Origin: a virus
Lineage: Duplodnaviria > Heunggongvirae > Uroviricota > Caudoviricetes
Reading direction: 5' to 3' (one strand)
DNA: 64,000 nucleotides
IMG/VR virus record: IMGVR_UViG_3300028591_000077
The notes beneath the pieces were generated by a model. That model made no database searches, was not told the origin of the DNA, and worked only from the letters and a program-made list of their open reading frames with translations. The translations under genes were made by a program, and so were the position numbers. Shown here one piece after another: positions 134-55,180 of this stretch (positions within the stretch are counted from its first letter, which is position 1; each line of letters opens with the position of its first letter).

Positions 134-200
134 GAGCCTGTGCTTATTTCATTACCCGCTAGTTACGGGTGCCAAAATCTTCGCCACAACTAGCCAGGCC
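134..200 (+). ncRNA. Bulged-stem element 1, enclosing an anticodon-like hairpin (loop CT AGT TA)
   Basis: GA GCCTG T GCT TATTTC ... AGC CAGGC C; inner ACCCG/CGGGT stem with 7-nt loop. Confidence 0.75.
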
Positions 201-224
201 TCAAAAAGGCTATAACATAATTTA

Positions 225-279
225 GAGACCATACTTACTTCAAAGAACAAACCTTGAAATTTGTAAAAACAGTTGGTCC
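225..279 (+). ncRNA. Bulged-stem element 2
   Basis: GA GACCA T ACT TACTTC ... AGT TGGTC C; inner ACAAA/TTTGT hairpin, loop CCTTGAAA. Confidence 0.75.
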
Positions 280-365
280 AAAATTATGTTTTTTTATTTT
301 ATGTAAAAAAATTAAAAAATAACTGTATAATATAATGTGCAAAGATAAAGCACACAAAAACTCGA

Positions 366-416
366 GAGCCTATACTTATTTCTTCAGAAATATGGTATTC
401 TAAAAACAGTTAGGCC
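366..416 (+). ncRNA. Bulged-stem element 3
   Basis: GA GCCTA T ACT TATTTC ... AGT TAGGC C. Confidence 0.75.
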
Positions 417-520
417 AATTACTTATTAAATAATGTAGGCGCTTGAGGTAGATCTGGATTCAGTTATACTTCGGCGCCTTTATTTAATAAAAATCTTGGG
501 TAAACAGAAAAGGAGATTTT

Positions 521-2476
521 ATGGGAAAACCAACAATCAAATCAATCTTAGCCGCTCGTCATTATTTAATTGTCGATAAGGCCCCAGAAGACAAGAACAT
601 GTCTGCCTATTACAATGCATTTTTGCTTGCTAATTTTGGCGTCATCGTTGATCGTCCTCACATGTTAACTCGTGAAGCAGTTAACGTTATCGCTGATACT
701 TTTAAGCTTAACGTTCCAGCAAGCTTCTACGATAACCCTCAACACATGGCTTATTTTTCTAAGTCAGAATTGCTTATCGAGCAACTCGTTTCCTATTTCT
801 TAGTTGAAACCGGAACTGGAATCTATAGCCGTCCTGAAATCTTTGAAAAGGATTTACCTGAGTATAAAGTCGGCAACGAAATCAAACTTCGTGAATTCAG
901 AATCGTCAATGCAGAGGAAGCAGTTGAAATCCTTAAAGGCATCTGCGATGCTTTCTGTGATTACACTCGTCCATTCTCTATCGATGAATTAGCTGAGTTC
1001 GAATATCTTTTCGTCAACGGTTATTACACCGGAAAAGAAATCAAATGCCGCGATAACATCTTTACTCTTTTGAAGCACGATGCAAGCTTTGCGCGCTTCT
1101 TGGATAAGAAAGATATGGTTAAGCTTTCTATCGCTTTCTTCGGGGAGCACAGAGAGTTTAGACCTGCAGATGAGGAAAAACTCGCTCTTATCAGAACTTG
1201 CTTACCTTACGTCCGTAATTGCCCAATGAGCAAAAAGCAAGCTAAATACTACAATAAGCTTCTTTCATACTGCAAAGTCAAAGGCGATGCTGCAGACAAT
1301 GCACGTTCTCCTTATAGACTTGCAAAAGTTGAACTTGACAAGGGTAATGTTTTAGGCGCCGCCGAAATCTTCGCCCGTAATGGTTCTTTACTTGAAAGAA
1401 ACATCAAGTTCTTGCTTTCAAGAGCTAACCCTGTCGAAGCCGTTAAGATCATCGAAATGCTTCCAGCAAAGAATCCAATGGTTCTTTATCAGATGATTTC
1501 AGCTATGTCTGAAGACAAGACAGATGGACGTGTATTCTCCTTTACTAAAAATAATAAGGTAAAACGTCATGTTGAAACCGATTATGAAGCTAAATGGAGA
1601 AAGTCCAAGCTCAACGACGCTACTAAGACTTTACTTCACGATATCGCTATCGAGAAGATCAAAGACTCTTATAGAGCAATGGGTTCTTTAGGTAAAGTTT
1701 ACGTCTCCGACGCATTTAACTTACTTGGAATCCCATCCAATACATCTGCTGGTGGAAAGGGCATCGATGTTCTTCCAACCGGTTCTCGTATCGTCTGCCC
1801 ATTCAACAAAATCCGCACTTTCGTTTACTGGGACGGAATCCGCGACGTTGACGCTTCCTTGGTTTTAGTCAAGAAAGACGGTAGACAAGATACCATTTAC
1901 TATGGTAACTACTCCAGCAAGCCATTTGGCACCAGCATTCTCTTCTCTGGAGACTGCCGTGATGTCAAGGGTTCTGAATACTACGATTTAGACTTAGACG
2001 AACTTCGTGCTAAGGGCTACGTCTCAGTTCTTTACACCCTTAATGGCTTCGGTGGAAAATTCACTCAAGGCGAAACCTTCTGTGGATACCAAAACAAAGA
2101 AGACCTTAAGACTCGTGCTTGGGATCCTAAAAACATCGCAATGCAGTTCAGAGTCGCTGGTGATTCTTCTCAAGTCCTTGCCTTCGGTATCGATTTAGAG
2201 ACAAATGCAGTGGTCGTCTTGAACCTTGTTCGTGATGCTTACAACAGAACTGTCAACTCCAGTGAAACAGATTCTGTCGCTAAGTACATGAAAGCAAGCT
2301 TCTTAGAGCTTAACATGGGCTTAGTTGCTTCATGCAGAGGCGAAGTCGTAACTGACCCAGCCGAAGCTGATATCGTCTTTGACGACAGCTATATGCCTCT
2401 TGAAGGTCAAAAGGTCGTAAGAACTTATGATCTTGAAAAGCTCGTTGCTATCGCAAATGGAGGGGAGGTAAAATAA
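521..2476 (+). CDS. Large protein with C-terminal TerD-like domain and helical N-terminal region (possibly TROVE/Ro-like)
   Basis: 651 aa, AGGAG RBS; C-terminal ...VYWDGIRDVDAS...FSGD...GSEYYDLDLDEL... resembles TerD fold; the N-terminal assignment is inference. Confidence 0.6.
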   Translation: MGKPTIKSILAARHYLIVDKAPEDKNMSAYYNAFLLANFGVIVDRPHMLTREAVNVIADTFKLNVPASFYDNPQHMAYFSKSELLIEQLVSYFLVETGTGIYSRPEIFEKDLPEYKVGNEIKLREFRIVNAEEAVEILKGICDAFCDYTRPFSIDELAEFEYLFVNGYYTGKEIKCRDNIFTLLKHDASFARFLDKKDMVKLSIAFFGEHREFRPADEEKLALIRTCLPYVRNCPMSKKQAKYYNKLLSYCKVKGDAADNARSPYRLAKVELDKGNVLGAAEIFARNGSLLERNIKFLLSRANPVEAVKIIEMLPAKNPMVLYQMISAMSEDKTDGRVFSFTKNNKVKRHVETDYEAKWRKSKLNDATKTLLHDIAIEKIKDSYRAMGSLGKVYVSDAFNLLGIPSNTSAGGKGIDVLPTGSRIVCPFNKIRTFVYWDGIRDVDASLVLVKKDGRQDTIYYGNYSSKPFGTSILFSGDCRDVKGSEYYDLDLDELRAKGYVSVLYTLNGFGGKFTQGETFCGYQNKEDLKTRAWDPKNIAMQFRVAGDSSQVLAFGIDLETNAVVVLNLVRDAYNRTVNSSETDSVAKYMKASFLELNMGLVASCRGEVVTDPAEADIVFDDSYMPLEGQKVVRTYDLEKLVAIANGGEVK

Positions 2477-2670
2477 TGCCTGCTACTCCAACCGATGCTG
2501 AAACATTACGTCTTCTTGCTAGGCGCGTTGAACGCCTAGCAGAAGAGTATGAACACAATGCTCCGACATTAATCAAAACCACAGAGCTTAGATTAATCAA
2601 TGAAGCATGTCAATCATTGCTTGATAGCTTAGAAGCTGAATTAGATGCAAAACAAGGGCAAGAAAATTAA
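2476..2670 (+). CDS. Hypothetical protein
   Basis: 64 aa, overlaps upstream stop (TAATG), GGAGG RBS. Confidence 0.7.
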   Translation: MPATPTDAETLRLLARRVERLAEEYEHNAPTLIKTTELRLINEACQSLLDSLEAELDAKQGQEN

Positions 2671-2740
2671 TCTTGCCCTTTAATTTTTAAAAAATTTATT
2701 GTATTATAAAATATAAGGAAAAACATTCGCTAAATTAAGT

Positions 2741-4911: not shown

Positions 4912-5036
4912 GAACCAGTACTTATTTCTTTTTCGCCTTACATGCGAGAGGTCGTTGGTTCGAGTCCAACCGTCGCGGCACGGGTGACGTGTAGCGACGT
5001 AGCTCAGTTGGGAGAGCGCTTATTACTAGTCTGGTC
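4912..5036 (+). ncRNA. Bulged-stem element 4: circularly permuted tRNA-Val(TAC) body with closed acceptor hairpin
   Basis: 3' half (anticodon, T arm, CGTCGC) at 4934-4976 precedes 5' half (GCGACG, D arm) at 4994-5020; ACCAG/CTGGT stem. Confidence 0.85.
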
Positions 5037-5043
5037 AAAATTT

Positions 5044-6874: not shown

Positions 6875-7101
6875 GAGCCTATACTTATTTCTAGGACTGA
6901 AAATCCCCGTGTCCCTAGTTCGAATCTAGGCTCTCCCACCATAGGAGCCAATACTTATTTCGGATTCCGCGGTAGCTTAAAAGGTAAAGCCCCCGATCTA
7001 TAATCGGGAGATTGTCGGTTCAAGTCCGACCCATGGCATTGTGAGTTTGGCCACTTTGGGAGAGTAGCTCAGTTGGTAGAGCAGGAGTTAATAGTTAGGC
7101 C
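6875..7101 (+). ncRNA. Bulged-stem element 5: circularly permuted tRNA-Phe(GAA) with a nested element
   Basis: 3' half with CCA at 6894-6941, 5' half GGGAGAG+D arm at 7058-7085; outer GCCTA/TAGGC stem. Confidence 0.9.
6945..7052 (+). ncRNA. Nested bulged-stem element 5b enclosing a tRNA-Ile(TAT)-like cloverleaf (about 6966-7038)
   Basis: GA GCCAA T ACT TATTTC ... AGT TTGGC C; CCCGA-TC TAT AA-TCGGG anticodon arm, T arm, no CCA. Confidence 0.8.
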
Positions 7102-7243
7102 TTTTTTATTAAAAAATATCGTATTATATAAAGAAACGAAAAATATTCGCTAAATTATTTGGTACTTGTCTTCCTTAGCGGTACGACTTAATCCAGGGAT
7201 ATTCAGGAGATATTACCGATACAAAGATTAAGCAAGAAAGATT

Positions 7244-7323
7244 TAGACTAAACTTATTTCAAAGCCTTAGTCCCACAGGGACTATATAAAAATGAAGATC
7301 AAAATTGGCCGCACAGTTAGTCA
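7244..7323 (+). ncRNA. Bulged-stem element 6
   Basis: GACTA A ACT TATTTC ... AGT TAGTC. Confidence 0.7.
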
Positions 7324-7456
7324 AAGTATTGTTCTAAAATTGTTTATAATACGCCTGAGTGGTACGACTTGTTGGAACTTATAATTAAAACCTCGTTCGC
7401 GATGCAGCTAACAAAGAGCGTCAATTAATTATAAGGAAAGATAAGCAAAAAGGGCA

Positions 7457-7529
7457 GAAACTACACTTATTTCAAATTTTTCTAATCTACACTTACCATA
7501 GAAAAATTGGCCACGACAATAGTTAGTTC
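7457..7529 (+). ncRNA. Bulged-stem element 7
   Basis: GA AACTA C ACT TATTTC ... AGT TAGTT C. Confidence 0.7.
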
Positions 7530-7562
7530 GTATTTCATAAAAAATATCGTATAATATTTATA

Positions 7563-7645
7563 GAGCTTATGCTTATTTCAAATGGTTATAGAAGGTTCGA
7601 TTCCTTCACCGTCCGCCAATCCCGGACAGTGATATTAGCTAGGCC
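7563..7645 (+). ncRNA. Bulged-stem element 8: permuted T-arm/acceptor mini-helix with GCCA
   Basis: GAAGG-TTCGATT-CCTTC-ACCGTCC-G-CCA then GGACAGT; GCTTA/TAGGC stem. Confidence 0.75.
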
Positions 7646-7735
7646 AAAAAAATATTTGTAAAAAAATTAAAAAAATATTTACAAAACAAAAAAAGTATTG
7701 TATAATATTTATGTAAGCAAGTTAAGCAAGCTTGC

Positions 7736-8342
7736 TTCGAGTGTTCTTTGAGAAAGGATTTATGTTGAACCATGTGCAGAGGGATTACCTCCTTGCATGG
7801 AAGTTGGCTAAATAACGCGATAAATTGTGGGATACTGCAATGTAAGCTAAGACCTGTATTGAAAGATACGGGTATTCCTGTCAAAACGTGATCATTGACA
7901 GGCTAAGCTGATTGTGCAACATGTTATGGTACACAAAGCAATTCTGTCTAGGCTCGTCCGATAAGAGGCTCTGGGAGCAATCTCATCCCGCCTGTGGAAT
8001 TAAGCCTGAGAAACTTAGTTCCCGGCATCTCAACCTAAGGATAGTGACGTTTTGAAGCGGCGAAAGCCGTGTATAAGAGCTGACAGAAGTACGAGTAGCC
8101 GTATGACGTCGTTCGATCAAGTATAAAATTGAAGAATGTGATTAATTTCTTCCTTGCTGAAGTTCGGTGAAAGTTGGGGGACATCAATTCCCTCTATTGT
8201 TCGGTGCTAGTCACCAATTTGTGAAGACCAAGGTCGCGCCTTGGCTCTCAGCCACAAGTTAATATGTGCGAATATGTGGAATAATAAGTGTTGTAAGATG
8301 AATAAAAGTCTCGCTTAGATCATTTCTCAAAGAATACTCGAA
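7736..8342 (+). ncRNA. About 600-nt structured ncRNA (ROOL-like candidate)
   Basis: 20-bp terminal helix 7736-7755/8323-8342, promoter immediately upstream, many internal hairpins, no ORF. Confidence 0.65.
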
Positions 8343-8632: not shown

Positions 8633-8747
8633 GAGCTCATACTTATTTCTAGCATTGGGAGCCGGTGTTTGCAGGTTCGAGTCCTGCCTCCCCGACCATT
8701 ATCGGGGAGTAGGCAAATTGGTAAAGCCGCTGTTTAATAGTTGAGCC
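8633..8747 (+). ncRNA. Bulged-stem element 9: circularly permuted tRNA-Pro(TGG)
   Basis: 3' half with CCA at 8652-8698, 5' half CGGGGAG+D arm at 8703-8732; GCTCA/TGAGC stem. Confidence 0.9.
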
Positions 8748-8767
8748 TTAAAAAATCTATTATTATA

Positions 8768-8829
8768 GAGCCTATACTTATTTCCGCCAAGAGGCAATTT
8801 CCTTTTAAGAAATCTATGATAGTTAGGCC
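8768..8829 (+). ncRNA. Bulged-stem element 10 with a Lys(TTT) anticodon stem-loop
   Basis: ATTTC-CT TTT AA-GAAAT at 8797-8813. Confidence 0.8.
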
Positions 8830-8835
8830 ATTAAT

Positions 8836-10870: not shown

Positions 10871-11261
10871 GGGCTCGTACTGGTTTCGATTGGTATTTGA
10901 TGTTTATAACTACAGCAAGCTGATAACTTACTATCAAACAAAAACAAACGACAAAACTTTAAACCCTGCATTTATTGCCTCCAACAGATTCGTTGGTGCT
11001 CGCGCCTAATTTAAGGCCATAGTAGTCGAGAAGTAAAACTGAGTTAGATTGGTCGAGTTTAACTCTTTATAATCAGACCTCGGTCAAGAGAACATTAGCT
11101 TTATTAGATATCTTGATTTAAATCAATAAATAAGCTATCTGCGCGCCCCGTTGTGTTTGAAAAGGAGCGGACAGAGAAATATTCATGAACACATAAAGCT
11201 GTAATTGACGTTATAGGGGTTTGGTATCAAGACCGGGGTTCGACTCCCCGCGGGTCCACCA
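10871..11261 (+). ncRNA. ssrA: tmRNA
   Basis: GGGCTCG...GGTTTCGA 5' end, G3:U acceptor, T arm and CCA 3' end, tag frame ...KTNDKTLNPAFIASNRFVGARA*. Confidence 0.9.
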
Positions 11262-11690: not shown

Positions 11691-11787
11691 AGGGGATTAC
11701 GATAATTGGCAAGTCCGTCGGTCTTCAAAACCGATCAATCCGGCTCCAACCCGGAGAGCGCGGGTTCGATTCCTGCATCCCCTGCCA
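11691..11787 (+). tRNA. UGA-decoding tRNA (anticodon TCA), Trp-like acceptor with long variable arm
   Basis: AGGGGAT/ATCCCCT-G-CCA, TCGGT-CT TCA AA-ACCGA, TCCGG/CCGGA variable stem. Confidence 0.85.
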
Positions 11788-11790
11788 GTA

Positions 11791-11847
11791 GAGCCTATGC
11801 TTATTTCAAAAACATCAGACTGCAACTCCGATTAATGAAGCTAGGCC
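11791..11847 (+). ncRNA. Bulged-stem element 11 with a Cys(GCA) anticodon stem-loop
   Basis: ATCAGA-CT GCA AC-TCCGAT; loop identical to that of tRNA-Cys at 19780. Confidence 0.8.
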
Positions 11848-11872
11848 ATTATTTTTAGAAAGGCGATAATAT

Positions 11873-12541
11873 ATGAATAAAAGAGTAAAAACGTTTCTAT
11901 TTGCAATTTTTGCCGGTATTGCCATTGGCGTCGGCGGATTGCTTTTTATTTTATCAAAAACATATATTCCAGGTAATTGGGGTAATATTGTCGGTTCGTT
12001 GTTATTCCCGGTTGGATTAATTACAATTTGCTATTGTAAATTTAATTTATATACTGGAAAAATTGGCATTGCTCCAAATAAAGGTGTAAATACTAATGAT
12101 TTGAATGTATTTGAGTGGCTAGCTTGGATTCTATTAGGCAATATTGTCGGAGCGTTTGCCTTTGGATTGTTAGTTTATCCATTCACTTTGCTTGGAGGAA
12201 GCTTCGCCGATACCGTCCATGCTATTGGGTTAGCAAGGGAAACCATGGATCCGATTTCAATGGCTGGAACATCTGTCTTATGCGGAATCTTAGTTTATAT
12301 TGCGGTTTATTTCTTCAATAAGTCTGATGAGTACTTCGGCAAAGTCGTCGGTGTCTTGGTTCCTATTGCGTTCTTCGTATTAGCCGGATTTCAGCACTGC
12401 GTTGCCAATATGTTCTATATGGCGGCTTCTGGTAGTTGGACATTGGCGTCTACTCAAGCACTAGTAGGTTGTATCTTAGGTAATTCTTTCGGTGGATTGC
12501 TTGCCAATTTGCCGGTTGTATATTTTAAAGGAGCTAAATAA
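11873..12541 (+). CDS. Formate/nitrite transporter (FNT, FocA/NirC family)
   Basis: FPVGL...LYTG and AGFQHCVANMFY motifs, multiple TM helices. Confidence 0.9.
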   Translation: MNKRVKTFLFAIFAGIAIGVGGLLFILSKTYIPGNWGNIVGSLLFPVGLITICYCKFNLYTGKIGIAPNKGVNTNDLNVFEWLAWILLGNIVGAFAFGLLVYPFTLLGGSFADTVHAIGLARETMDPISMAGTSVLCGILVYIAVYFFNKSDEYFGKVVGVLVPIAFFVLAGFQHCVANMFYMAASGSWTLASTQALVGCILGNSFGGLLANLPVVYFKGAK

Positions 12542-13182: not shown

Positions 13183-13263
13183 CATAGAAAAAAAGCACAA
13201 CCACAGTGATGTGGCGTCGCAAAGCTATAGGGCCTTGGAGGAAGGCAGCCAGTTGCTTCTGTG
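13183..13263 (+). promoter_or_regulatory. c-di-GMP-I (GEMM) riboswitch
   Basis: GCACAA-CCACA GTGA TGTGG-CGTCGCAAAGCTATAGGGCC...GGCAGCCAGTTGC matches the GEMM core; lies in the 5' UTR of the operon. Confidence 0.8.
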
Positions 13264-13305: not shown

Positions 13306-13923
13306 ATGAAATTAAGAAACAAATTAGCAGCTATCACAGCTGCAGCAATGTTAGCATTTACTGGCGTTGGTTTTGCTGCATGGACATTTGCTAATGAAAA
13401 ATCAGCTAATGTTGGTGGAGACAATGTTGTTACTTGTGCAGTTGAAACAAAGAACTTAGTTATTGATGAAGGTTATACTAAATTATATTTAATTTTTGAT
13501 GCGCCAGCAGCTGGAACTACTGGTTCATTAAAGGCTGGTGAAGGTATTTTCTTTGCAACAGATAAAGAGCCAGATGCTGAAACCGGATTATATACTAAAG
13601 TTACATCTCTTACATTAACTGGTTCATTTGAACATACAGATAATGATGCTCATTACAACCATGCAGTAAGTTATACTTTTGATTGCACACCTACTAATAC
13701 TTTAAGTGCTACTTATGTAACACAAACAGCTGCTGGAAGCTTCGATGCAAATGTAACAGGAGCAACTTCAACTTTTACAGATGTTTCAACTGTTTACACA
13801 CTTCCAACATTTGATTATACTGCTGCGGTTAAAGCTTACAATCATGCGTCAGAAATGTCTGCTATGATTACTTCTTTAAATGACTCAGAAGTATCATTTG
13901 CATTTACGTTTAATATTGACTAA
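13306..13923 (+). CDS. Secreted protein with SipW-type signal peptide (TasA/camelysin-like)
   Basis: MKLRNK...GVGFAAWTF N-terminus; adjacent to signal peptidase. Confidence 0.6.
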   Translation: MKLRNKLAAITAAAMLAFTGVGFAAWTFANEKSANVGGDNVVTCAVETKNLVIDEGYTKLYLIFDAPAAGTTGSLKAGEGIFFATDKEPDAETGLYTKVTSLTLTGSFEHTDNDAHYNHAVSYTFDCTPTNTLSATYVTQTAAGSFDANVTGATSTFTDVSTVYTLPTFDYTAAVKAYNHASEMSAMITSLNDSEVSFAFTFNID

Positions 13924-19120: not shown

Positions 19121-19187
19121 GAACCTATGCTTATTTCTAGCTCATTGTGAGCGTCAAACTGGTAATTTGAAGGTATTTAGCTAGGTC
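19121..19187 (+). ncRNA. Bulged-stem element 12 with a Thr(GGT) anticodon stem-loop
   Basis: ACCTA/TAGGT stem; TCAAA-CT GGT AA-TTTGA at 19154-19170. Confidence 0.8.
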
Positions 19188-19193
19188 AAATAT

Positions 19194-21819: not shown

Positions 21820-22482
21820 ATGAGTACATATTTTTGTAGCGATTTACATTTAGGGCATAGAAACATTCTTAAGTATGAACCGATTCGTATTGATGGAATC
21901 TGGGAAATGTTCTTCAATGATGACCCAAGATACCCAACTGCGGAATCATTCAGAGAATACGTTTTGCCATTAGTCGATGATTTCTCCGAAGAAGGAAAAG
22001 ATAAGTTTAGATACATTCTTTCGCTTCATGATAAAATGCTTATTAATCATTGGAATAGCGTCGTCTCTAATGAAGACACGGTTTGGTTCTTAGGCGATTT
22101 CTGTCTTGGCGGAAACGAAAATATCAAAAAGTATTTAGACCAGCTAAATGGACATAAAATGCTTATCCGTGGAAACCATGACAAGAAGACGGATTCGGCA
22201 TACAGAGAAGCTGGTTTTGAGTACGTTTCAAGATACCCAGTCATCTTAAAGAAATTCTTTATTTTAAGCCATGCGCCATTCGAGTACATGCAGTCGACTG
22301 CTCCATATTTCTACATCTATGGACACGTTCACAGTTCTCCTGCATACCAGACTTGGACTCCAATCTCTTGCTGCGCTTGTGTAGAACGACATGGATTTAA
22401 GCCTATTCAGATTCATGGCTTTGATGAAGCCGATGATTCTATCGAAAAGTATCATCCAAGTTTAGAAAACAAAAGAGGCTAA
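21820..22482 (+). CDS. Calcineurin-like metallophosphoesterase
   Basis: SDLHLGH, LGDF, GNHD, LSHAP, YGHVH motifs; start revised to the RBS-led ATG. Confidence 0.9.
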   Translation: MSTYFCSDLHLGHRNILKYEPIRIDGIWEMFFNDDPRYPTAESFREYVLPLVDDFSEEGKDKFRYILSLHDKMLINHWNSVVSNEDTVWFLGDFCLGGNENIKKYLDQLNGHKMLIRGNHDKKTDSAYREAGFEYVSRYPVILKKFFILSHAPFEYMQSTAPYFYIYGHVHSSPAYQTWTPISCCACVERHGFKPIQIHGFDEADDSIEKYHPSLENKRG

Positions 22483-22520
22483 TGCCTCTTTTTATATTAA
22501 TTTATTGTATAATAAAAAGT

Positions 22521-23936
22521 ATGGAAAAGTATAATACTATTATTGTCGGCGCAGGCCCTTGCGGCTATTTTTGCGCTTATGAATTAATCAAGAAAAATCC
22601 TGATTGGAAAGTGCTTTTGATTGATAAAGGTCATTCTATCATGCAAAGGCATTGTCCTGTTTTAGAACATAAAATTGACCATTGTCCAAGGAATCCAAAC
22701 GGACACAACGAATGCTTTCCAGCATGTTCAATTACCAATGGTTTTGGTGGGGCTGGAGCTTTCTCTGACGGTAAGTTTATTATTTCGACAGAGTATGGCG
22801 GTTGGCTCGGCGATTATATCGGAGAAGATAAACTTATTGAGCTTATTGACTACGAAGATAATATAAATCTTTCTTATGGTGCGACTGCCGAAACCACTGA
22901 TCCATATACCGAAAAAGTCAAGCAAATCGAACAAAGAGCCATGGGCGCAGGACTTAAATTACTACATAGCAAGGTAAGACATTTAGGCACTGAAGAGAAT
23001 ATCAAAATCTTAAAGTTAATTTATGAAGATTTAGAAAAATCTATCGAAATGCGCTTCAAAACTACAGTAAAAGACCTGATAATTGAAGCAGACTGCGTAA
23101 AAGGCGTTATTCTTGAAGATGGCGAAAAACTCTATGCCGACAGCGTTGTGTTAGGAGTAGGACGTCAGGGTTCTAAATGGTTGAACGAGCTTTTTGGAAA
23201 ATATAATATCTCGATGAAACAAAACCGCGTAGACTTGGGCGTGCGTGTTGAATGCCCTAACGTCGTTATGGATGAAATCAATGAGAATCTCTATGAAGGA
23301 AAGTTTATTTTCAGGGCTTCTAATGACTTATTGGTGAGAACATTCTGCTCTAATCCTGGTGGACAGGTGGTTATGGAGAACTACGAAGGCGTCGTAAACG
23401 TCAATGGACATGCTTACAAAGATCCAAGACTACATAGCAATAATACAAATTTTGCATTATTGGTAACCCATCACTTCAGAGAACCGTTCAATAAGCCAGA
23501 CGAATATGCAAAACGAATCTCAGAATTAGCGAATCAGCTTGCTTGTGGTTCGGTATTAGTCCAATCTTATGGCGATTTAAAGAAGGGCAGACGAAGCACT
23601 GAAAAACGAATTAAAGAATGTTTTACGACCCCAACGCTTAAAGAAGCGGTTCCTGGCGATTTAAGCCTTTGCTTGCCATATAGAACATTACAATGCATTA
23701 TCGAAATGATAGAAGCATTGGACCACATTACTCCAGGCATTGCTACGGACCATACGCTATTATATGGCGTTGAAGCAAAATATTATTCAGCGCATCCAGA
23801 AATCACCGAAAAGCTAGAAGTTATTGGATTAAATAACCTTTATGTCGGTGGTGACGGCGCTGGGATTACCAGAGGTTTGGCACAAGCTGGAGCTTCTGGA
23901 ATCCATATCGCAAGGAACATATTAGATAAGGAGTAG
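22521..23936 (+). CDS. NAD(P)/FAD-dependent oxidoreductase (COG2509-like)
   Basis: GAGPCG Rossmann motif, GGAGAFSDGK, GDGAGITRGLAQA; ATG lies 7 nt after TATAAT (probably leaderless). Confidence 0.85.
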   Translation: MEKYNTIIVGAGPCGYFCAYELIKKNPDWKVLLIDKGHSIMQRHCPVLEHKIDHCPRNPNGHNECFPACSITNGFGGAGAFSDGKFIISTEYGGWLGDYIGEDKLIELIDYEDNINLSYGATAETTDPYTEKVKQIEQRAMGAGLKLLHSKVRHLGTEENIKILKLIYEDLEKSIEMRFKTTVKDLIIEADCVKGVILEDGEKLYADSVVLGVGRQGSKWLNELFGKYNISMKQNRVDLGVRVECPNVVMDEINENLYEGKFIFRASNDLLVRTFCSNPGGQVVMENYEGVVNVNGHAYKDPRLHSNNTNFALLVTHHFREPFNKPDEYAKRISELANQLACGSVLVQSYGDLKKGRRSTEKRIKECFTTPTLKEAVPGDLSLCLPYRTLQCIIEMIEALDHITPGIATDHTLLYGVEAKYYSAHPEITEKLEVIGLNNLYVGGDGAGITRGLAQAGASGIHIARNILDKE

Positions 23937-24265: not shown

Positions 24266-25456
24266 ATGAAATACACTGGAACAAAATCAATCGGCATTAA
24301 GTTGCCTATTCTCAAAGAGGGAGATGACCTTGCTACTGAGGTGGTAAATTCTGTCATCAAAGCTTCAAAGAAGGAGCATTTTAAACTAAGGGACAGAGAC
24401 GTCATTGCAATTACAGAGTCAATCGTCGCTAGAACTTCTGGCGATTATATTACGGTAACAGATATAGCAGAGGATATTGAAAATAAAATCGGTAAAAATA
24501 AGTCTATTGGCTTGGTATTTCCAATTTTATCAAGAAACAGATTTTCGAATATCTTAAAGGGAATCGCACAAGGCGTAAAAAAGATTTATCTCGTTCTATC
24601 ATATCCTGCCGATGAAGTCGGCAACCATCTTATATCCGACGAAGCTTTATATAATAGCGGCGTTTCTCCAGTCAGCACCTTAACCGAAAAAGAATTCAAG
24701 TCAAAGTTCGGCGAACCAAAACATGAATTTACCGGCGTTAATTATGTAGAATACTATAAGGAAATTGCTGCGAGCAGAGATTGCAAATTAGAAGTTATAT
24801 TTTCTAATGACCCGACTGTTGTATTAAAATACGTAAAAACAGTTATCGCCGCGGACATTCACACCAGATACTTAACCAAAGCCAGATTAATGCGTGCCGG
24901 CGCGAATAAAGTCATTCTATTAAGTGATATTTGTTCAACTCCGATTGAAGGTAAACATTATAATTCAAAATATGGTTTACTTGGAACAAATAAGGTTTCT
25001 GAGTCTTCTTTAAAGCTTTTCCCAGAGCATGGTGAAGAATTAGTAAAGAAAGTTCAGGCAGAGATTCTAAGAAGAACCAAAAAGCATGTTGAAGTCATGG
25101 TCTATGGTGACGGTGCCTTCAAAGATCCACAAGGAAAGATTTGGGAACTTGCTGACCCAGTGGTCTCGCCGTTCCATACGGAAGGATTAAACGGAACACC
25201 TAATGAAATCAAATTAAAATACTTCGCCGACAACAAATTCAAAGAATTAAAAGGCAAAGAACTTACAAAGGCAATTAAAGAAGAAATTATCAAGAAAGAC
25301 AAAAACTTAAAAGGCACAATGGCTTCAGAAGGAACTACTCCAAGACAGCTAACAGACCTTCTTGGCTCGCTTGCCGACCTTACGTCAGGCTCTGGTGATA
25401 AAGGCACACCAGTAGTATTAATTCAAGGTTACTTTGATAATTATTCTAGTAAATAA
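24266..25456 (+). CDS. Coenzyme F420-0:gamma-glutamyl ligase (CofE)-family protein
   Basis: IKLPILKEGDDL, ITESIVAR, DGAFKD...ELADP, SLADLTSGSGDKGTPVV motifs. Confidence 0.8.
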   Translation: MKYTGTKSIGIKLPILKEGDDLATEVVNSVIKASKKEHFKLRDRDVIAITESIVARTSGDYITVTDIAEDIENKIGKNKSIGLVFPILSRNRFSNILKGIAQGVKKIYLVLSYPADEVGNHLISDEALYNSGVSPVSTLTEKEFKSKFGEPKHEFTGVNYVEYYKEIAASRDCKLEVIFSNDPTVVLKYVKTVIAADIHTRYLTKARLMRAGANKVILLSDICSTPIEGKHYNSKYGLLGTNKVSESSLKLFPEHGEELVKKVQAEILRRTKKHVEVMVYGDGAFKDPQGKIWELADPVVSPFHTEGLNGTPNEIKLKYFADNKFKELKGKELTKAIKEEIIKKDKNLKGTMASEGTTPRQLTDLLGSLADLTSGSGDKGTPVVLIQGYFDNYSSK

Positions 25457-54334: not shown

Positions 54335-55180
54335 ATGAGTCAAGCCGATAAATATTTTAAAGAAGAAGTTAATAAACTATTAACAGAAGGTTTTAATGAT
54401 AAGGATTTTGAAGTCAGACCACATTGGCCAGATGGAACTCCTGCTCATACAATTAAAACATTTTGTGCTATCCGTAGATATGATTTAAGCAAAGAATTTC
54501 CAGCATTAACACTTAGAACTCAAGCATTCAAAGGAGTTGTTAGAGAATTACTTTGGATGTGGCAAAAGAAGTCTAATATTGTTGATGAATTAGGTAAATC
54601 AGCAGGAATTTGGAGAGCTTGGGAAAGACCTGATGGAACCATCGGTAAAACATATGGTTATCAATTAGGTAAAGTTTCTCATTACTCTTATGGTGATTTC
54701 GATCAAGTTGATAATCTTATCTATTTATTGAAGAATAAACCAATGGACCGCAGAATGATTGTTACAATGTGGTGCCCAGGTGATTTATGGGATATGGCGC
54801 TTCCGCCATGCGTCTATGAATCTATTTGGGATGTTACTGATGGAAAGCTTAACTGCACATTGATTCAACGTTCTGGTGACTTACTTGCTGCTGCTTGTTC
54901 AGGAGGTTGGGATACCATGGAATATGCTGTCCTTCAACATATGCTTGCGCAAGTCTGTGGTTACAAAGTCGGTGAATTAGTGCATATCGTTAATAATTTA
55001 CATATTTATGACAGACATATTGAAGCCGTCAAAAAAGTTTGTGAAAACCCAGAATATGACGCTCCAACCTTATGGATTAATCCTGAAGTTAAAGACTTCT
55101 ATGCATTTACAGAAGATGACTTCAGATTAGATAACTACCAATCAACTAAACTTACTGAAAAATTTGAGGTCGCTGAATAA
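54335..55180 (+). CDS. thyA: Thymidylate synthase
   Basis: ELLW, GKTYGYQ, RRMIV, MALPPC, QRSGD, NLHIYDRH. Confidence 0.97.
   Translation: MSQADKYFKEEVNKLLTEGFNDKDFEVRPHWPDGTPAHTIKTFCAIRRYDLSKEFPALTLRTQAFKGVVRELLWMWQKKSNIVDELGKSAGIWRAWERPDGTIGKTYGYQLGKVSHYSYGDFDQVDNLIYLLKNKPMDRRMIVTMWCPGDLWDMALPPCVYESIWDVTDGKLNCTLIQRSGDLLAAACSGGWDTMEYAVLQHMLAQVCGYKVGELVHIVNNLHIYDRHIEAVKKVCENPEYDAPTLWINPEVKDFYAFTEDDFRLDNYQSTKLTEKFEVAE

Follow-up and report, generated by a model that had tools for sequence, protein, structure and literature searches.

A TerD-fold protein and small RNAs with a common handle: a candidate ribonucleoprotein of phages and Clostridia

The window analysed here is a stretch of 64,000 nucleotides (nt) from the virus record IMGVR_UViG_3300028591_000077 (Caudoviricetes). 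It comes from a large contig that resembles a phage genome and has every gene on the + strand, and the metagenome runs that contain its DNA are from sheep gut. Close to its start, three small structured elements lie directly upstream of an open reading frame (ORF) of 651 amino acids (aa), designated P0001. Each element has a closing stem with pyrimidine-rich UUAYUUC on its 5′ side, which we call the handle; nothing else is common to all of these RNAs. The enclosed segment, the cargo, ranges from plain hairpins to permuted tRNA mimics. An earlier reading of the same DNA (the original prediction) had proposed the 651-aa protein as the cognate binding partner of the elements. On comparison with related loci, "cognate RNA-binding protein" is the best-supported reading of P0001, and we hold it with moderate confidence.

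Handle RNAs and the 651-aa protein

The pattern GAGMCYRTRCTTAYTTC (5′ arm GAG-N4-N-RC-TTAYTTC) is matched without mismatch on the + strand at 134, 225 and 366. With up to three mismatches the whole window has 15 matches (14 on the + strand), and shuffled sequences have 2.5 ± 1.4. For 13 of the 14 + strand matches a 7-nt partner lies 50–226 nt downstream and gives a stem of 5 base pairs (bp), one bulged nucleotide and 2–3 bp. The fourteenth falls within a coding sequence and lacks a partner; it is probably a chance match. The exact 3′ partners of the three upstream copies are GCCAGGC at 193, GTTGGTC at 272 and GTTAGGC at 409. The stem letters vary between these copies and yet remain complementary (GCCTG/CAGGC, GACCA/TGGTC and GCCTA/TAGGC). 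The three copies of the original prediction are confirmed, each with an exact arm and partner (Table 1). In all three the stem is present and the cargo is a simple hairpin. Ten more handle copies lie in the tRNA island of the window.

Pairing was also tested on 5′ arms chosen by their 5′ side alone from the window and 27 related loci, which avoids selection for pairing. An exact Watson-Crick partner of 8 nt is found within 300 nt for 83 of the 90 distinct arms, and for none of the 90 with a shuffled stem. The arms comprise 26 distinct stem sequences. In most related phages the 250 nt or so before the homologue contain a copy with the handle-3 stem.

P0001 belongs to an unannotated family in PHROGs. 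Its AlphaFold2 model, built from 55 homologues, has a predicted local distance difference test score (pLDDT) of 84 and a predicted template modelling score (pTM) of 0.82, and shows a mainly helical N-terminal region followed by a β-sandwich. In a Foldseek search of the PDB, the C-terminal sandwich matches 2kxt (E 7.5e-5), 2qng (3.2e-4), 2qz7 (4.8e-4) and 3ibz (1.1e-3); the TerD matches have a probability of 1.0 and a TM-score of about 0.6 by target, and TerD-like proteins in BFVD likewise match P0001. In Pfam, TerD (PF02342) is reached by P0001 only below threshold (12 bits, E 0.15, cut-off 25.3 bits), and by one of 24 Clostridia members at E 2.4e-4. With a C-terminal sequence profile 2kxt is again the top match, yet at only E 0.69. 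The TerD label of the original prediction therefore holds by fold and not by the Pfam sequence threshold. Residues D442, D444, D478, E486 and D489 are invariant or nearly so across the family. The acidic residues and motifs align with the TerD calcium-binding segments DLDAS and GDN.TGEGDGDDE, from which metal binding is predicted only. The C-terminal sandwich is shared with TerD of the tellurite-resistance (Ter) stress systems (PF02342, 2KXT). The classical members of that family have about 190 residues, consist of the domain alone and are encoded in ter operons together with TerB, TerC, TerE and TerF, and we know of no RNA partner for them. In contrast, the domain in P0001 is fused behind a helical region of 390 residues, and its gene stands alone with small RNAs, outside a ter operon.

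Across the family the N-terminal region is basic, with a median isoelectric point (pI) of 8.4, and the C-terminal part is acidic (median pI 4.8). The N-terminal region modelled alone has a pLDDT of 80. Foldseek, VIA-align and ESM Atlas searches (by shape and by features) with the model of residues 1–390 gave no relative outside the family, the best Foldseek match having E 0.04. No catalytic fold or motif was found in P0001 by Pfam, Foldseek or VIA-align.

Co-occurrence of handle and gene

The gene is widespread. A word-indexed search gave over 500 homologues with identities of about 50%, the longest of their contigs having 228 kb, and a full profile search gave 235 clusters at 50% identity, nearly all of 640–720 aa and of the same architecture. 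A second branch, about 24% identical to P0001, is found in Clostridia, with 291 matches in GTDB species genomes. Isolates with a homologue include Eubacterium uniforme ATCC 35992, E. ruminantium FB3002 and the Lachnospiraceae bacteria AC2031 and C6A11; in AC2031 the gene is flanked by ordinary genes of the chromosome and does not lie in a prophage. Full-length structural relatives in BFVD come from Campylobacter phages IBB35 and CP21 and Lactobacillus phage LpeD. A tblastn search with P0001 against GenBank phages gave partial, weak matches only. With P0183, a family member of the Clostridia type, matches were obtained in Rhodococcus phage Weasels2 (E 2e-23) and in Mycobacterium phage WXIN.

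The handle accompanies the gene in phages. At all 27 IMG/VR loci with a homologue (41–71% identity) at least one handle, usually with the stem GCCTA, lies within about 500 nt upstream, and at most of them more handles follow directly downstream of the gene. The exact 17-mer occurs in just 27 of 2.9 million viral contigs. The gene is encoded on 22 of these 27, and in two the 17-mer is a chance match with no partner arm.

In Clostridia the handle takes the form AGCUA-8 bp-UACUUC ... 8 bp-RAUAU. At the level of the pattern its 5′ arm is found within 400 nt upstream at 57 of 73 loci. There are 126 elements with a pairing stem, and seven of the eight stem pairs change on both sides. Within ±6 kb of the gene, 93 of 106 strict handles fall in the 500 nt before the start codon, with one to four per homologue. 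Presence and absence agree as well. Among 151 sampled Lachnospiraceae genomes the gene is found in three, one copy being degraded. A handle covariance model, applied with strict filters and to the top 40 candidates per genome, matches exactly these three and none of the other 148. The 5′-arm IUPAC pattern had been tried as a genome-level test and rejected: it matched 93 of the 151 genomes, about as many as its reversed control, and because it was too unspecific the covariance model was used instead.

The two actinophages carry the same architecture. In Weasels2 at least three folded handles (a fourth by eye) occupy an unannotated 388-nt gap directly after the homologue gp266 (YP_009596442.1); each has an outer stem, a 5x5 internal loop, an inner stem of 7–8 bp and UUACUUC, and one has a tRNA-like cargo. 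In WXIN five tandem elements of this architecture fill an unannotated 413-nt gap directly before the 700-aa homologue. Here CUUUCAU replaces UUACUUC, and the elements have the form CAGG-CUC-stem-CUUUCAU ... UUUCC-CUG. The pairing of RNA and gene is thus seen in four lineages (rumen phages, Clostridia, Weasels2 and WXIN), and the handle sequence differs in each, as expected if a protein co-evolves with its RNA site. These comparisons support the view that gene and motif travel together far beyond the synteny of close relatives.

Likeness to Y RNAs, the handles of the tRNA island and the local transcription unit

The original prediction had also pointed to the Y RNAs that flank Ro60 genes, and had suggested that the first 400 residues of the protein may be a divergent TROVE ring, the fold of Ro60. 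A likeness to Y RNAs is seen in part of the set, as some handles carry YrlA-like modules. An end-to-end stem together with a permuted tRNA module (T arm, closed acceptor-like stem and D arm) is found at 4912–5037, 6875–7102 and 8633–8748 of the window, in bacterial copies and in one Weasels2 copy. Bacterial handles with tRNA-like cargo align over the full length of Rfam YrlA (RF02553) with 46–48 bits (E about 1e-7), and in these alignments the handle stem falls on the Ro-binding stem of YrlA. The element at 4912–5037 aligns with 31 bits (E 2.8e-5) to model positions 24–84, the tRNA-like module. These scores lie below the YrlA gathering threshold of 69 bits, which is reached by no element of the window, by none of the bacterial copies (42–48 bits) and not by Weasels2 (26 bits). 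Rfam searches with upstream copies 1–3 at E ≤ 10 gave chance-level matches and no YrlA. Near its 5′ end YrlA has the motif GNCGAA(N)G, the presumed contact with Ro60 (PMC4201824). None of the 12 window handles contains it in its first 30 nt, and UUAYUUC is conserved there.

For the protein, no likeness to TROVE was seen. TROVE (PF05731) is absent from Pfam searches of P0001 (E ≤ 1), of 10 distant members and of 24 Clostridia members. In hhalign, a 60-sequence family profile compared with four Bacillota Ro60 gave a probability of 1.2%, the Ro60 profile being shallow. PDB sequence-profile searches gave no TROVE likeness, and no Ro60 is among the Foldseek and VIA-align matches to the N-terminal model, of which the structural aligner barely covered residues 1–258. 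Pfam finds no vWA domain in P0001, whose C-terminal domain fits TerD structures instead, and the full profile search of the family contains no vWA-fused form. With no TROVE signal in Pfam, fold or profile comparison, a TROVE ring is not supported. Nor is a TROVE gene found elsewhere in five gene-bearing bacterial genomes, Weasels2, WXIN and three jumbo relatives, one of them complete with terminal repeats. The controls of this search were positive in Deinococcus and Bacteroides, and TROVE was detected in 6 of 301 Bacillota. In the literature we found no account that links TerD-domain proteins with Y RNAs or describes the handle–gene pairing, and none that supports the earlier statement that TROVE and TerD occur in association.

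Several features are nevertheless common to this system and to Ro60 with YrlA or YrlB, to our knowledge the only characterised bacterial particle of its kind. The protein gene has several small RNAs within 2 kb, in many cases on its upstream side and in the same transcript; the end-to-end stem carries the conserved part and the other end varies; at least one RNA per genome has a permuted tRNA mimic; RNA-repair genes adjoin the locus; and in the protein a helical region precedes a domain that binds metal in Ro60 and is predicted to do so in P0001. Y RNAs depend on Ro60 for their stability. Unlike Ro60, P0001 has no detectable TROVE or vWA and combines a helical region of no matching fold with a TerD-fold domain. 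Unlike YrlA, the handle has UUAYUUC (CUUUCAU in WXIN) in place of GNCGAA(N)G and scores 31–48 bits against 69. Unlike the Y RNAs of Ro60, up to 13 handles occur per phage amid tRNA genes, and some cargos keep a full anticodon arm. Y RNAs have been searched for only beside TROVE genes (Chen et al. 2014, PMC4201824). The RNAs treated in a 2026 preprint on tRNA mimics of bacteria are of other families.

Circularly permuted tRNA genes offer another comparison. They are present in Cyanidioschyzon merolae and some archaea, where they are processed through a bulge-helix-bulge. Swapped tRNA halves closed by a bulged helix are likewise seen in some of the other window handles. In contrast, copies 1–3 contain nothing of a tRNA, the closing stem differs from a bulge-helix-bulge, the cargo may also be something other than a tRNA, and the companion of the handle is a dedicated protein, not a splicing endonuclease.

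The RNA island of the window holds 42 tRNA genes, a transfer-messenger RNA (tmRNA), a ROOL RNA and a cyclic di-GMP (c-di-GMP-I) riboswitch, and its ten handles lie 4–19 kb from the 651-aa gene. They are spaced 1–6 nt from the adjoining tRNAs, as tRNA genes are, so tRNA-processing enzymes probably define the handle ends and release these copies. In a complete relative the distance to the gene is about 90 kb for six of the eight handles. An orphan handle of Eubacterium uniforme lies 89 kb from the gene and has its own promoter-like −10, outer stem and U-run. The distant copies, the tRNA-like spacing and the orphan together argue that the handles are stable trans-acting RNAs and more than leaders.

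Around the 651-aa gene, the stop codon of an upstream ORF at 121–123 precedes handle RNA 1, and the promoter-like motif before handle 3 also stands before the gene-proximal handle of six relatives (L002, L007, L009, L012, L015 and L017). Metatranscriptome contigs from two studies cover 1–210 and 1–220, including the handle 1 region, and stop at 210 and 220, where the DNA run is continuous. Others begin at 343 and 353, a weak hint of a start rather than a mapped one, and the one spanning 343–2072 runs unbroken through handle 3 and the hairpin at 436–479 into the ORF. Missing cover by RNA contigs, as at handle 2, carries no information. As the contigs start at 343 and 353, handle 3 is placed in the leader of the 651-aa ORF and is probably part of its mRNA. 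The further hairpin of the original prediction, given at about 436–479, is indeed a stable one. It resembles a terminator but is read through by the RNA contigs. Equivalent hairpins are present in L006, L007, L015, L017, L022 and L026, and the order of handle, long hairpin with U-run and ribosome-binding site is kept in many relatives. The 64-aa ORF that follows the gene was considered as a universal partner of it and rejected, its conservation being limited to the closest relatives.

A different arrangement is seen about 120 nt before the gene in L001/L025. There a longer GC-rich hairpin, with a U-run at its end, encloses the proximal handle (GAAACCATGC...GCTGGTTC) as its own cargo; the handle is nested in a terminator-like stem. 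The repeated promoter-like motif of the window, at 331–345 and 2876–2896, has the form (C)TGTATAATATAATG.

Table 1. Positions of the handle RNAs, the protein gene and the associated elements. Positions are those of the window unless another sequence is named.
Feature	Position	Strand	Remarks
Handle RNA 1	134–201	+	Stem GCCTG-[T]-GC / GC-CAGGC, then TTATTTC; cargo a 5–6 bp hairpin with 7-nt loop
Handle RNA 2	225–280	+	Stem GACCA-[T]-AC / GT-TGGTC, then TTACTTC; compensatory changes relative to copies 1 and 3
Promoter-like motif	331–345	+	CTGTATAATATAATG; extended −10 TGTATAAT at 333–340; repeated at 2876–2896
Handle RNA 3	366–417	+	Consensus stem GCCTA-[T]-AC / GT-TAGGC; in the 5′ leader of the 651-aa ORF (probable)
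Long stable hairpin, then U-rich run	436–479	+	Between handle 3 and the ribosome-binding site; −23.3 kcal/mol, z −4.9
651-aa ORF (P0001), candidate handle-binding protein	521–2476	+	AAGGAG at 509–514; good ribosome-binding site
N-terminal mainly helical region, aa 1–390	521–1690	+	Mildly basic; 11 conserved K/R
TerD-fold β-sandwich, aa ~420–575	1778–2245	+	Acidic motifs DVDAS and SGD..(G)SEY.D.D
64-aa ORF	2476–2670	+	Start overlaps the stop of the 651-aa ORF; helical; kept only in the closest relatives (L001/L025, L014)
Intrinsic-terminator-like hairpin and T-run	2654–2680	+	Closes the transcription unit; RNA contigs end at 2644–2754
Handle with permuted tRNA-like (YrlA-like) cargo	4912–5037	+	3 nt after one tRNA, 6 nt before the next
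Handle with permuted tRNA-Phe-like cargo	6875–7102	+	Encloses a nested handle (6945–7053) around a tRNA-Ile(tat)-like unit
Three handles (7244–7324, 7457–7530, 7563–7646)	7244–7646	+	Directly upstream of the ROOL RNA
Two handles (8633–8748, permuted tRNA-Pro-like cargo; 8768–8830)	8633–8830	+	Packed between tRNA genes
Handle	11791–11848	+	3 nt after tRNA-SeC
Handle	19121–19188	+	Between two tRNA-Asn genes, gaps of 3 and 5 nt; 18.6 kb from the gene
Weasels2 handle gap	L152:4880–5245 = NC_041887.1 about 85476–85841		YrlA 26 bits for the tRNA-like copy
WXIN handle gap	L153:2378–2756 = OR813930.2 about 54365–54743

Other features of the island and its surroundings were noted in passing. The ROOL RNA is full-length (7746–8331, 210 bits). 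The tmRNA (10871–11261, tag DKTLNPAFIASNRFVGARA) and tRNA-SeC(tca) (11691–11787) are phage-encoded, and a formate/nitrite-transporter-like gene (11873–12541) comes after the handle that adjoins the tRNA-SeC. The c-di-GMP-I aptamer at 13184–13260 (46.8 bits, above threshold) lies upstream of an ORF at 13306–13923 with no Pfam family. Downstream of the island are F420-0:gamma-glutamyl ligase-like and FAD-dependent oxidoreductase/GidA-like genes (24266–25456 and 22482–23936), an unusual phage cargo.

To the left of the window, a 757-aa Pnkp-type fusion (AAA_33 kinase, metallophosphatase and T4 Rnl1-type ligase; L149:6174–8447) is encoded 1.5–3.8 kb upstream of the gene, with a PARG-like gene and an HAD gene farther upstream. 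In another relative examined this RNA-repair gene is not kept, and lysis genes are found there instead. The link to an RNA-repair locus made in the original prediction is thus borne out at this locus by the kinase–phosphatase–ligase fusion and is absent from that relative. As a clue to function the neighbourhood was dropped, the repair gene not being conserved and the bacterial neighbours being ordinary and unrelated.

Interpretation and alternatives

We consider it moderately probable that the 651-aa protein and the handle RNAs make up a ribonucleoprotein whose way of working resembles that of Ro60 and its Y RNAs, although the protein component is unrelated. The idea of a cognate partner has gained strong comparative support from the pairing in phages, Clostridia and actinophages; the TROVE identity that had been attached to it is not supported. 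In such a particle the mildly basic helical N-terminal region would bind the handle. The acidic TerD-fold domain would act in the manner of the metal-binding vWA of Ro60, in contact with a partner or in ligand sensing, and the variable cargo would bring in, or soak up, factors that recognise tRNAs or act in RNA repair or decay. A promoter at about 333–340 would give one transcript with handle 3, the leaky terminator-like hairpin, the 651-aa ORF, the 64-aa ORF and the terminator at 2654–2680; handles 1 and 2 and the ten copies of the tRNA island would be separate small RNAs. Since handle 3 is probably on the same transcript as the ORF, protein bound to its own leader could limit its own synthesis. 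In bacteria the nearest handle commonly ends 20–30 nt before the start codon, and this spacing, with handle 3 in the leader, fits a feedback in which the protein would act on the mRNA that encodes it. The autoregulation by way of the 5′ copies that the original prediction envisaged is plausible.

Several points weigh against this interpretation. The case for it is wholly one of comparative genomics, and the co-occurrence and the upstream position would fit a purely cis-acting leader too. The joint occurrence of gene and motif, to which the original prediction had pointed, holds at the 27 phage loci and in the Lachnospiraceae (3 of 3 against 0 of 148) and breaks down on three contigs that have genuine handles and no homologue, in a search whose positive controls were detected. 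One of these (IMGVR_UViG_3300028591_000080; L044 / G004) is 230 kb long and rated 100% complete, with one handle in a tRNA array at a distance of 727 nt from the contig end; its protein might be provided by the host. The remaining two, related fragments of 135 kb and 26 kb, have handle clusters. About a third of the bacterial loci have no strict handle within 600 nt, for which variant motifs or cut contigs may be the cause. The strict filters and the limit of 40 candidates per genome narrow what the Lachnospiraceae comparison can say, and the metatranscriptome data, being contigs only, are blind to RNA ends. Finally, the N-terminal fold has no likeness to any known RNA-binding domain in Foldseek, VIA-align or ESM Atlas.

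Other explanations must account for the same observations. The handle could be a module for processing, stability or display that is recognised by factors of the host (for example RNase P/Z, tRNA-modifying enzymes or an RNA chaperone), while the protein, functionally linked to it, acts on the cargo or on tRNAs and not on the handle, for example as a tRNA-repair enzyme or chaperone. The abutment of handles to tRNAs at 1–6 nt, with ends probably set by tRNA-processing enzymes, is in line with this, as are the Pnkp/Rnl1-type repair gene and the 42-tRNA array that adjoin the locus, and bacterial YrlA is known as a substrate of tRNA enzymes (PMC4201824). However, the handle is the sole feature common to all copies, the gene-proximal copies usually have no tRNA-like cargo, and the protein shows no catalytic fold or motif. 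The handle sequence moreover varies with the protein lineage, as expected if it is the protein that reads the handle. We regard this explanation as unlikely. Less likely still is a cis-regulatory leader, that is, an attenuator or translational operator for another factor or ligand, with the protein as a TerD-type stress or ligand sensor that does not bind the RNA. Such a leader would place the handles where 93 of 106 bacterial ones are, in the 500 nt before the start codon and often ending 20–30 nt from it, and would agree with window handle 3 in the leader ahead of a terminator-like hairpin; a riboswitch-like leader would equally be expected to co-occur with the gene. It does not explain the ten window copies among tRNA genes, 4–19 kb off and with tRNA-like spacing, the six of eight copies about 90 kb away in the complete relative, or the orphan bacterial copy 89 kb off with its own promoter-like −10 and U-run. 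The Weasels2 elements are downstream of the gene, and a cargo of such high variability, with whole tRNA mimics among its forms, is unlike an aptamer.

That P0001 is a very divergent Ro60, a TROVE ring in which vWA has been swapped for TerD, would agree with the same domain logic, in which about 390 helical residues precede a domain of known (Ro60) or predicted (P0001) metal binding, with the YrlA-like partner RNAs and with the absence of canonical Ro60 from the genomes tested; given the Pfam, hhalign, Foldseek and VIA-align results, this is very improbable. An inherited gene order with no functional link has in its favour that the phage relatives are one clade sharing the tRNA island. The pairing persists, however, at 24% protein identity, in ordinary chromosomal contexts with no tRNA island and in actinophages with different handle sequences, and presence and absence match in 3 of 3 against 0 of 148 genomes. 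We give this explanation almost no weight.

A ribonucleoprotein of P0001 and its handles may belong to something broader, which we put forward tentatively and with somewhat more doubt than belief: a second, independently evolved Y-RNA-type family, in which a non-TROVE protein reads the UUAYUUC handle and carries exchangeable cargos such as permuted tRNA mimics and anticodon-arm look-alikes. This family would be spread in jumbo phages, in actinophages and in Clostridia of the rumen and gut. Its role during phage infection may be to recruit or decoy host factors of tRNA targeting, repair or decay, and it may limit itself through the leader handle. Cultured systems are at hand in Weasels2 on R. 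erythropolis, WXIN, E. uniforme ATCC 35992, E. ruminantium FB3002, AC2031 and C6A11. If the proposal is true, the plan of a handle with an exchangeable tRNA-mimic cargo would have arisen or been re-used more than once. An unannotated protein family of hundreds would gain a function and the TerD-fold domain an RNA-linked role, and a class of unannotated RNA genes within phage tRNA arrays would be explained.

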